In this document: in pieces, positions 61,442 through 64,000 of the stretch | Position numbering within the stretch: position 1 is the first letter of the stretch | How the letters are laid out: each line of letters opens with the position of its first letter | Source: Escherichia coli | GTDB taxonomy: Bacteria; Pseudomonadota; Gammaproteobacteria; Enterobacterales; Enterobacteriaceae | Assembly: GCF_003790525.1 (NCBI RefSeq) | Contig: NZ_CP033635.1 | Reading direction: 5' to 3' (one strand) | Length of the DNA: 64,000 nt | Notes under the pieces: generated by a model | Told to the model about the DNA's origin: nothing | What the model saw: the letters and a program-made list of their open reading frames with translations, nothing else | The model's database searches: none | Program-made: the position numbers and the translations under genes

Positions 61442-62200
61442 ATGGACGCACTACAAACACAAACTGTTAATAGTACAACCGCGCCGCAGCCCAACTACAT
61501 TCCGGGGCTGATTGCGGTGGTCGGGTGTGATGGCACCGGTAAATCCACACTGACCACCGACCTGGTGAAATCGCTGCAACAACACTGGCAAACCGAGCGG
61601 CGCTATCTGGGGCTGCTCTCGGGCGAAGACGGCGACAAAATCAAACGATTGCCGTTGGTTGGCGTCTGGCTCGAAAGGCGACTGGCGGCCAAATCATCGA
61701 AAACCCAAAGCATGAAAACCAAATCTCCAGCGCTATGGGCGGCGGTGATTATGTACTGCTTCTCGCTGCGAAGAATGGCGAATCTACGCAAGGTTCAGCG
61801 ACTGGCGCAAAGTGGCGTTCTGGTGGTCAGCGATCGCTTCCCGCAGGCTGAAATTTCGGGCTTTTATTATGACGGACCGGGGATCGGCGTCGAACGTGCG
61901 ACCGGGAAAATCAGCATGTTTCTGGCGCAGCGCGAACGGCGTTTATACCAACAAATGGCGCAATACCGTCCTGAATTAATCATTCGTTTGGGGATTGATA
62001 TTGATACTGCCATTTCCCGCAAGCCTGACCATGACTATGCCGAATTGCAGGACAAAATCGGCGTCATGTCGACGATTGGCTATAACGGCACAAAAATTCT
62101 TGAGATTGATTCCAGAGCGCCTTACAGCGAAGTGCTGGAACAGGCACAGAAGGCGGTTTCTCTGGTTGCCATCGTTTCTGACCGCCGAAGTTTAACTTAA
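61442..62200 (+). CDS. yghR: P-loop NTPase/kinase-like protein YghR
   Basis: 252 aa; Walker A GCDGTGKST, SDRFPQ, SRKPDH motifs. Confidence 0.85.
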   Translation: MDALQTQTVNSTTAPQPNYIPGLIAVVGCDGTGKSTLTTDLVKSLQQHWQTERRYLGLLSGEDGDKIKRLPLVGVWLERRLAAKSSKTQSMKTKSPALWAAVIMYCFSLRRMANLRKVQRLAQSGVLVVSDRFPQAEISGFYYDGPGIGVERATGKISMFLAQRERRLYQQMAQYRPELIIRLGIDIDTAISRKPDHDYAELQDKIGVMSTIGYNGTKILEIDSRAPYSEVLEQAQKAVSLVAIVSDRRSLT

Positions 62201-62245
62201 GGCTGGCGGGATACTTTTTACTATCAACGATAAGGTCAGGCTGAA

Positions 62246-63595
62246 TTGGCGGGTTTTAACATCAAACATTGGTTTGCAGATGGCGCGTTTCGCACCATTA
62301 TTCGCAATAGCGCCTGGTTAGGCTCCAGTAATGTCGTGAGCGCTTTACTGGGTCTGTTGGCGCTCTCGTGTGCCGGTAAAGGGATGACGCCCGCCATGTT
62401 TGGCGTACTGGTGATTGTGCAATCGTACGCCAAGTCGATCAGCGATTTTATTAAGTTTCAGACATGGCAGTTGGTGGTGCAGTACGGAACGCCAGCCTTG
62501 ACCAACAATAATCCGCAGCAATTTCGCAATGTCGTCTCATTTTCCTTCTCGCTGGATATCGTCAGCGGCGCGGTGGCGATTGTCGGCGGCATTGCCTTAC
62601 TCCCTTTTCTTTCCCATTCATTAGGTCTGGATGACCAAAGCTTTTGGCTGGCAGCGCTGTATTGCACGCTCATTCCTTCAATGGCTTCCTCCACGCCGAC
62701 CGGCATTCTGCGTGCGGTAGATCGCTTCGATCTAATTGCTGTACAGCAAGCGACGAAACCTTTTCTGCGTGCAGCGGGGAGCGTCGTAGCCTGGTATTTT
62801 GACTTTGGTTTTGCGGGTTTTGTTATTGCCTGGTACGTGTCGAATCTGGTTGGCGGCACCATGTACTGGTGGTTTGCCGCGCGCGAATTACGCCGCAGAA
62901 ATATCCATAACGCCTTCAAATTGAATCTGTTTGAGTCTGCCCGACACATTAAAGGCGCGTGGAGTTTTGTCTGGTCAACCAACATTGCCCACTCCATCTG
63001 GTCGGCGCGTAACTCGTGCAGCACAGTGCTGGTGGGGATCGTGTTAGGACCCGCTGCCGCCGGGTTATTTAAAATCGCCATGACATTCTTCGACGCCGCC
63101 GGAACGCCAGCGGGTTTACTGGGCAAAAGTTTTTACCCAGAGGTGATGCGTTTAGATCCGCGCACCACCAGACCGTGGTTGTTAGGCGTGAAGTCAGGTT
63201 TACTGGCGGGCGGAATCGGTATTCTGGTGGCGCTCGCGGTGTTGATTGTCGGCAAGCCGCTCATTTCGCTGGTGTTTGGCGTTAAGTATCTCGAAGCGTA
63301 TGACCTGATTCAGGTGATGCTGGGCGCAATTGTGATCTCGATGCTGGGCTTCCCTCAGGAGTCATTGCTATTGATGGCGGGAAAACAGCGCGCTTTTCTC
63401 GTGGCGCAAACCATCGCCTCAATCGGCTACATCGTATTGCTGTTCATGTTCTGTCATCTGTTTGGCGTGCTGGGAGCAGCGTTTGCTTATTTCGGCGGTC
63501 AATGTCTGGATGTGGTGCTCTCGCTAATTCCAACCTTAAGGGCATTTTTTCAGCGCCATTCCTTGCTTTATAACGCAGCCGGAGAGAAATCCTGA
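62246..63595 (+). CDS. yghQ: polysaccharide-transporter (MOP/Wzx flippase-like) inner membrane protein YghQ
   Basis: Multi-TM hydrophobic ORF; track start is TTG at 62246 with AAGG upstream; first in-frame ATG is at 62384, so the true start is uncertain. Confidence 0.75.
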   Translation: MAGFNIKHWFADGAFRTIIRNSAWLGSSNVVSALLGLLALSCAGKGMTPAMFGVLVIVQSYAKSISDFIKFQTWQLVVQYGTPALTNNNPQQFRNVVSFSFSLDIVSGAVAIVGGIALLPFLSHSLGLDDQSFWLAALYCTLIPSMASSTPTGILRAVDRFDLIAVQQATKPFLRAAGSVVAWYFDFGFAGFVIAWYVSNLVGGTMYWWFAARELRRRNIHNAFKLNLFESARHIKGAWSFVWSTNIAHSIWSARNSCSTVLVGIVLGPAAAGLFKIAMTFFDAAGTPAGLLGKSFYPEVMRLDPRTTRPWLLGVKSGLLAGGIGILVALAVLIVGKPLISLVFGVKYLEAYDLIQVMLGAIVISMLGFPQESLLLMAGKQRAFLVAQTIASIGYIVLLFMFCHLFGVLGAAFAYFGGQCLDVVLSLIPTLRAFFQRHSLLYNAAGEKS

Positions 63596-64000
63596 TGATG
63601 AGAAAATATTTCCCGCTTGAGGCTAGCGAGCGTCTATTTGTTGCGATTGAAGAAGATGATGTCGTTGATGCACAGGTCAGTTTGCCGCCGACTATCGCAC
63701 TAAGTTGTACCACCGAAATCATCCATGATAATTACGCGTTATGCCTGCAATTCTGGCTCAATGGCGTCAATCGCCAGGAGTTACTGCGTTTAATATGCAA
63801 ACAGGCCAAAGGCGATGAGCTGACTGCTGATGAGCGCAAACAATTTAAATACATGCGAGCGCGCTACAAGCACCTGCGTTTTGCGCAACGGCTGTATTTA
63901 AAGAAGCATCAGGCCGGATTTTTATTCGGTAAAACGACCGTTTTTTTGGGGCGTTTTCAGGACGGCTTTCGTAACGGTAAGAAAAATATTGTGTCGTATT
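63595..64000 (+). CDS. hypothetical protein (YghO-like by position), 5' portion only; continues beyond window
   Basis: ATG at 63595 overlaps yghQ stop by 1 nt (ATGA); hand translation MMRKYFPLEASERLFVAIEEDD... has no stop over 135 codons to the window end; absent from the ORF track because it is open-ended. Confidence 0.6.
   Translation, partial: MMRKYFPLEASERLFVAIEEDDVVDAQVSLPPTIALSCTTEIIHDNYALCLQFWLNGVNRQELLRLICKQAKGDELTADERKQFKYMRARYKHLRFAQRLYLKKHQAGFLFGKTTVFLGRFQDGFRNGKKNIVSY

Follow-up and report, generated by a model that had tools for sequence, protein, structure and literature searches.

Where does translation of yghQ begin in Escherichia coli, and does the base that its stop codon shares with the start codon of the next gene tie the two genes together? 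We addressed both questions in a window of 64,000 nucleotides (nt) of E. coli DNA (assembly GCF_003790525.1, contig NZ_CP033635.1). The longest yghQ open reading frame (ORF) runs on the + strand from a TTG at 62246 to a TGA at 63593-63595 and encodes 449 amino acids (aa). Since the closest in-frame stop codon on the 5' side is the TAA at 62231-62233, the TTG is the first codon at which canonical initiation could occur. An AAGG (62232-62235) is separated from it by 10 nt (62236-62245), and the first in-frame ATG is codon 47, at 62384-62386. At the other end, the A of the yghQ stop is the first base of the ATG at 63595-63597 (TGATGATG), which is followed by a second ATG at 63598 and opens an ORF that continues past the end of the window. 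An initial annotation of the window had given the TTG, the AAGG, the internal ATG and the stop/start overlap these same positions, and the sequence and the ORF list agree with it throughout.

TTG starts, as well as 1-nt TGATG and 4-nt ATGA overlaps, are common among E. coli operons. Genome context outside the window was taken from a RefSeq record that is 100% identical to it. In that record the Prokaryotic Genome Annotation Pipeline (PGAP) begins the yghQ coding sequence (CDS) at the TTG (WP_000896891.1, 'lipopolysaccharide biosynthesis protein') and begins a 274-aa hypothetical protein (WP_000984988.1) at the overlapping ATG. Public RefSeq annotation already has both the start at the TTG and the CDS that overlaps the yghQ stop, and such features are ordinary in bacterial operons. 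Neither is statistically unusual; both are real, since they are conserved. The only thing that we can add to the known annotation is that the real alternative to the TTG appears to be a mutated ancestral start, the AUC at 62261.

We consider it probable (roughly 0.8-0.85) that the TTG at 62246-62248 is the actual initiation codon of yghQ in Escherichia. A survey of one genome per species yielded 52 yghQ loci, each of which was inspected at its 5' end; 48 are from outside Escherichia and belong to Enterobacterales, Xanthomonadales and one Sphingomonas. All 48 have an ATG at the position of E. coli codon 6, so that their proteins would begin with MK(H/N/R)WFSDGAF. For several of these loci (Hafnia, Tatumella, Serratia ureilytica, Rosenbergiella, Erwinia rhapontici and others) no start but this ATG is possible, since the frame is closed by a stop 2-5 codons 5' of it and no other start intervenes. 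For the comparison of 5' ends a further Escherichia lineage, with 89% aa identity, was added to give five: E. coli, E. whittamii, Escherichia sp. E1V33, MOD1-EC7003 and the added one. All of these have ATC at codon 6 (Ile6, 62261-62263) and TTG five codons 5' of it. ATG in all other species and ATC in Escherichia would mean that the ancestral start was lost in the Escherichia lineage. We searched 5,426 complete E. coli genomes with a 45-mer that has the ATC at its centre: it matched 4,607 of them, 4,326 exactly, while its ATG version, in the same exact context, had 0 matches; the ATC is apparently fixed in E. coli. With the change from AUG to AUC at 62261, five residues, MAGFN, would have been gained at the N-terminus, and this Escherichia-specific extension appears to be drawn from the former leader. 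In Serratia proteamaculans, S. liquefaciens and Erwinia sp. JUb26, an in-frame ATG is found at the -5 position besides the main ATG. Such loci are a plausible intermediate state.

Translation in Escherichia would then begin at UUG 62246 with the aid of UAAGG at 62231-62235. The full Shine-Dalgarno (SD) sequence, UAAGGU (62231-62236), the first three bases of which double as the in-frame stop TAA, is contained in the 45-nt spacer between yghR and yghQ (62201-62245). The 5' half of this spacer is variable among the five Escherichia lineages and has an indel, but its 3' half, AAGGTC(A/T)GGCTGAA, is conserved in all of them, and so are the UAAGG, the spacing and the TTG. Of the 4,615 E. coli genomes matched by a 45-mer centred on the TTG, which includes the SD and the ATC, 4,324 carry it without a mismatch, and all 4,615 share at least a 28-mer exactly across the TTG. 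The calculated anti-SD duplex for the TTG (-6.5 kcal/mol) is the best among the candidate starts, and the mRNA around it is the least structured. In the reporter study of Hecht et al. (bioRxiv 10.1101/063800), UUG initiated at 10-100% of the AUG level and AUC at 1-2%.

Several alternatives can be set against this. The initial annotation preferred the TTG over the ATG at codon 47; a start upstream of that ATG holds up well, and the ambiguity that is left is between TTG and AUC. Initiation may have stayed at the ancestral site, with AUC 62261 serving as a rare non-canonical start, the TTG being incidental and the protein having 444 aa as in other genera. A number of points speak for this or limit our main reading. 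The position of codon 6 is the start in every one of the non-Escherichia loci, and the AUC has kept the ancestral weak SD-like sequence GGCGGGU at a spacing of 7 nt (-5.3 kcal/mol), so that some initiation there is possible; a flippase of low abundance might tolerate initiation as weak as 1-2% of AUG. Codons 2-5 show the changes G3D and N5S and are uninformative on whether they are translated, and the AlphaFold2 (AF2) model of YghQ is of moderate confidence (predicted local distance difference test (pLDDT) 73, predicted TM-score 0.71), with residues 1-11 below 50. On the other hand, initiation factor IF3 discriminates against AUC, and the TTG lies just 15 nt 5' with a stronger, well-spaced SD, both conserved across Escherichia. 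The only near-cognate start confirmed in E. coli is AUU, in infC and pcnB (bioRxiv 10.1101/063800). On balance, we regard initiation at the AUC as improbable, with roughly one chance in nine or so. One could also argue that the loss of the ancestral ATG marks a gene that is decaying or silent in Escherichia, which would make the question of its start moot. Across Escherichia the ancestral start codon has been mutated, the K-12 copy is shortened and listed by PGAP as a pseudogene, and a 2-kb query centred on the locus has no match in 808 of the 5,426 E. coli genomes. But the frame of 449 codons is intact, and dN/dS (the ratio of non-synonymous to synonymous divergence) between Escherichia lineages is ~0.03, which points to strong purifying selection; it was obtained at dS 0.4-0.6 (three Escherichia pairs, maximum ~0.57). 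The query matches 4,618 genomes, of which 4,152 hold at least 80% of it and 466 less than 80%, and the TTG with its SD is conserved. Decay is very unlikely.

The start that the initial annotation had weighed against the TTG, ATG 62384, would give a protein of 403 aa, and the 46 codons before it would be an untranslated leader. It can be said for this that ATG is the commonest start codon and that an SD-like AAAGGG lies just 5' of it. But the AAAGGG has 0 spacing, the region is structured (about -22 kcal/mol), and the starts of the orthologs lie 41 codons further 5'. The codons in question also behave as coding sequence. In an alignment of 24 ortholog sequences (70-89% identity), codons 7-46 rank among the most conserved of yghQ: every sequence has K7, F10, D12, G13, R16, R20, N21, A23, L25 and S27, and further invariant positions follow up to G46. 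When the window is compared with E. whittamii, codons 1-46 have 16 synonymous and 0 non-synonymous differences. The family profiles begin well before Met47, with position 2 of Pfam Polysacc_synt aligned at residue 19 of YghQ and position 7 of NCBIfam PRK10459 at residue 18. The AF2 model has a long helix at residues 13-44, taken as the first transmembrane helix (TM1; codons 13-44, 62282-62377), which lies wholly 5' of the internal ATG; the hydropathy maximum falls at residues 25-43, and K7, R16 and R20 are N-terminal to this peak. The view of the initial annotation that the first 46 residues hold a genuine transmembrane helix fits these data, and the orthologs, far from starting at the internal ATG, show the opposite pattern. 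Met47 itself (62384-62386) is nearly invariant as part of a conserved GKGM motif and is best seen as a conserved residue after TM1. Translation from Met47 would deprive the fold of TM1, and constructs or topology models that begin there would delete it. Taken together, these lines of evidence place the start upstream and confidently exclude the internal ATG, and this alternative is effectively refuted already.

The remaining in-frame candidates, ATT18/19, GTG31, TTG38 and ATG51, were rejected as well: they have poor SD sequences or spacing, are strongly structured and clash with the conserved residues 7-46.

In many Enterobacterales, a shared nucleotide motif just 5' of the yghQ ATG consists of 2-3 tandem 9-nt units and then a run of T (...tGGCTGAgtTGGCTGGTaTGGCTGGTTTTTTACC ATG). 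The E. coli form, within window positions 62201-62263, is shortened (GGCTGAatTGGCGGGTTTTAAC ATC), and its TTG matches the ATG of 'tATGGCTGG'. The motif may be a weak SD combined with a U-rich enhancer, or the site of a regulator. A conserved upstream ORF beginning in the 'ATGGCTGGTTTT' motif of other Enterobacterales was considered and dropped, as its frame relative to the main ATG shifts with the length of the T-run. The family database proteins P0036, P0048 and P0051 have spurious N-terminal extensions of 23-40 residues where there is no in-frame stop before the true ATG, and P0002, P0012 and P0013 (574-703 aa) are chimeras (a fusion with an LptF domain is one example) and probably artefacts of assembly or gene calling.

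What is the protein that is made from this frame? The CDS (62246-63595, 449 codons and the TGA) encodes what is, by profile and fold comparison, an intact MOP-superfamily protein, a predicted inner-membrane flippase of the Polysacc_synt (PST), Wzx-like type. YghQ matches PF01943 (Polysacc_synt) over residues 19-280 with 42.5 bits at a gathering cut-off of 28.2, and PF13440 with 31.8 bits at a cut-off of 23. Its score against the PRK10459 equivalog profile is 34 where the cut-off is 273, and hence it is not an equivalog of that protein. A Foldseek search of the PDB with the YghQ model gave 52 matches at E<=1e-3, and all 50 that were listed are MOP members. The top match is WzxE (9g9n), the lipid III flippase, with TM-scores of 0.73/0.79 over 427 columns; MATE proteins and MurJ come next. 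The model has the two-lobe MOP fold of ~12 transmembrane helices, TM1 included, although the count is approximate. With WzxE, MurJ and MATE proteins YghQ shares Polysacc_synt membership, a whole-length alpha-helical fold and a basic N-terminus followed by TM1, but it is only 13-18% identical to the solved structures. Unlike the Wzx genes, yghQ is found outside any O-antigen, enterobacterial common antigen or capsule cluster and adjoins genes for serine palmitoyltransferase (spt), an acyl carrier protein (ACP) and LptF/LptG paralogs.

We turn now to the second question. The TGATG at 63593-63597 joins yghQ, with a 1-nt overlap, to the downstream gene, of which the window holds the 5' part (63595-64000, 135 of 274 codons). 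A homolog of the downstream protein is encoded directly 3' of the yghQ homolog in every locus that reaches that far. The 52 junctions comprise 25 of the ATGA/GTGA type (4 nt), 9 of the TGATG/TAATG type (1 nt), 8 with longer overlaps (8-26 nt) and 10 with gaps of 0-13 nt; overlap is thus found at 42, and all fall between -26 and +13 nt. One of the 25, in Luteibacter sp. OK325, lay outside the automatic classes and was counted after inspection by eye. There the downstream gene is tandemly duplicated after the yghQ homolog, and the first copy has the ATGA overlap (L052 5338-7035). E. coli and E. whittamii have the same downstream ATG ATG, and a shift of the yghQ stop by one codon separates a 4-nt overlap from a 1-nt one. 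Within the final codons of yghQ, GGAGAG (63581-63586; duplex -6.6 kcal/mol) is placed ~8-9 nt before ATG 63595 as the SD of the downstream gene, and most of the orthologous junctions have a GAGAG motif in the corresponding position.

Junctions of this kind typically mark two genes that are translationally coupled and co-expressed. Ribosomes that finish yghQ could restart on the partner gene, or open it up for others, and the two proteins would be made together. The classical coupled pairs with TGATG or ATGA junctions are trpB-trpA and trpE-trpD of the trp operon. The yghQ pair resembles them in the shared stop and start bases, in the SD of the distal gene lying inside the proximal CDS and in joining partners of one pathway; it differs in that we infer its coupling from sequence and conservation alone. 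It may be instead that the overlap reflects compact packing of the operon and that the downstream gene initiates by itself, with no mechanistic coupling. The strong and well-spaced GGAGAG points that way, since a good SD of its own could allow the downstream gene to initiate independently of yghQ translation, and so do the 10 junctions with small gaps in place of overlaps; short gene overlaps are also very common in bacteria. Against independence, the gap never exceeds 13 nt in 52 loci from Enterobacterales, Xanthomonadales and Sphingomonas, and the 42 overlaps combined with an invariant gene order make up a pattern typical of co-translated partners. Independent initiation is a minority view in our estimate, if a serious one. 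The suggestion of the initial annotation that the overlap links the two genes thus gains from the conservation of the junction and from the embedded SD.

A search for promoter-like sites between yghR, yghQ and the next gene gave none. Terminator matches in the same interval were weak, not above the shuffled expectation, and were set aside; the only terminator-like hairpin near the spacer (62152-62170) is weak and lies inside the end of yghR. An Rfam scan of 60400-64000 returned a single sub-threshold match, to the fluoride riboswitch (opposite strand; 15.9 bits where 34 are required), and a regulatory RNA was rejected. Further upstream, a candidate sigma-70 promoter on the + strand (60619-60647, 9/12 consensus, weak evidence) precedes yghS and is possibly the promoter of the operon; the number of promoter-like sites in the region is not above the shuffled expectation.

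The downstream protein of 274 aa has no match to any Pfam or NCBIfam family, the E. coli protein falling below every Pfam threshold, and a sequence search of the PDB found no relative. Its AF2 model, built from an alignment of 25 orthologs, is all-helical with pLDDT 94.3. CHAD is the Pfam family most often matched weakly (4 of the 25 orthologs, best E 6e-4), but the relationship is revealed by fold comparison alone, in which the paired helical bundles of the CHAD fold are seen. We file the protein as a divergent CHAD-fold protein, predicted to be soluble, all-alpha and cytoplasmic. H105, H193, H237, K85, R88, K92, R95, R196, K197, R210 and R262 are invariant in the orthologs. Known CHAD domains (PF05235; polyphosphate-binding) include PDB 6qv5, 3e0s and 6rn5 and the C-terminal domain of E. 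coli YgiF (5a61). The present protein differs from these in that it is neither fused to nor beside a CYTH domain and is paired with the gene of a membrane flippase.

Genome context suggests what the pair might do. In the identical RefSeq record, the order of genes is yghT, then yghS, yghR, yghQ, the CHAD-like gene, a ytfJ-family gene and paralogs of lptF and lptG, followed by the divergent spt operon, yghO and glcC. The spt operon encodes serine palmitoyltransferase, an ACP, an NAD-dependent epimerase/dehydratase and a fatty acyl-AMP ligase. By RefSeq annotation and Pfam together, spt, ACP, an AMP ligase of the acyl-ACP-synthetase type, an epimerase/dehydratase of the CerR type and the LptF/LptG paralogs are all co-located here; YghO has no Pfam match. 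The part of the cluster that lies beyond the window end is seen in non-K-12 E. coli at L001 8432-14001 and L055 12404-20776. In Dyella, the yghQ/CHAD-like pair is directly preceded, on its own strand, by genes for the AMP ligase, the epimerase and the Spt-type aminotransferase.

Immediately upstream in the window are yghS (60697-61410) and yghR (61442-62200), both on the + strand. The latter, a RefSeq CDS, belongs to the same operon and encodes a dTMP-kinase-like P-loop protein of 252 aa with weak Thymidylate_kin and AAA matches; homologs of it sit 5' of yghQ in most loci examined. Together with yghT (- strand, L001 3832-4524), these genes encode neighbouring paralogous P-loop proteins with sub-threshold dTMP-kinase matches. 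RefSeq nevertheless names two of the three 'dTMP kinase'; dTMP is probably not what these proteins act on. Even as far away as Sphingomonas, the flippase has a YghR homolog (37% identity) as its companion. In a record titled Martelella alba BGMRC 2031, an alphaproteobacterium, the yghQ locus is 71% identical to that of E. coli, and the neighbouring yghR, CHAD-like and ytfJ homologs have 61-69% identity and are typical of Enterobacterales, which suggests that the record is mislabelled or misclassified. In E. coli the cluster is variably present or shortened, and one copy is plasmid-borne.

The sphingolipid cluster of Caulobacter contains spt, acpR, cerR, aasR, LptC2/F2/G2 and a 'potential flippase', CC_1166 (PMC11324152). 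The E. coli cluster has in common with it spt, an ACP, a CerR-type enzyme, an AMP ligase of the acyl-ACP synthetase type and a second LptF/LptG pair. C. crescentus CC_1166 (CCNA_01224) and YghQ also share InterPro IPR002797, that is Polysacc_synt (PMC11324152). There are differences. The neighbour of CC_1166, CC_1167, is a predicted glycerophosphotransferase and not a CHAD-like protein (PMC11324152), and what the E. coli cluster carries instead are a gene of the YtfJ family and yghS/R/T, its three dTMP-kinase-like P-loop genes. Because the composition of the cluster parallels that in Caulobacter, the most likely role of YghQ would be the flipping of an Spt-derived lipid; its likeness to CC_1166 is one of family membership. 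A more detailed scheme can be offered tentatively, and we would not call it likely. YghQ and its CHAD-fold partner might form an inner-membrane module for flipping an anionic, Spt-derived lipid of the sphingolipid type; the CHAD-like protein might read a phosphorylated head group to whose making the YghS/R/T P-loop kinases contribute, and onward transport of the lipid to the outer membrane might fall to the LptF/LptG paralogs. If correct, this could apply to non-K-12 E. coli, many other Enterobacterales, Xanthomonadales and Sphingomonas.

K-12 is of little help here. In a K-12 derivative, the yghQ CDS begins at the same TTG, but IS5 cuts it off after codon 355, and PGAP lists it as a pseudogene (L002 4247-6441, equivalent to window positions 62246-63310). 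E. coli BL21 has the locus intact. IS5 replaces everything between yghQ codon 355 and yghO. As the IS5-associated deletion removed the cluster, K-12 cannot reveal the pathway of which a flipping module would be part. The literature that we found on yghQ consists of K-12 phenotype screens, with nothing on the start site; one example is a screen of chlorhexidine minimum inhibitory concentrations (PMC8170033). Since the K-12 gene is a 3'-truncated remnant, 'yghQ' phenotypes from the Keio and ASKA collections concern that remnant, and phenotypes ascribed to 'yghQ' in K-12 (e. g. PMC8170033) need to be read with caution.

As for the start codon, the locus is a neat if minor case of start-codon turnover, useful for cloning and for comparing N-termini across genera. 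The CHAD-fold partner and the cluster of spt and Lpt-paralog genes are more interesting than the question of the start, though only partly new. A study of 2024 states that no sphingolipid flippase has been identified yet (PMC11087976). The conserved pairing of YghQ with a CHAD-fold protein, within a cluster of spt and LptF/LptG-paralog genes, makes it a concrete candidate for a bacterial sphingolipid flippase.

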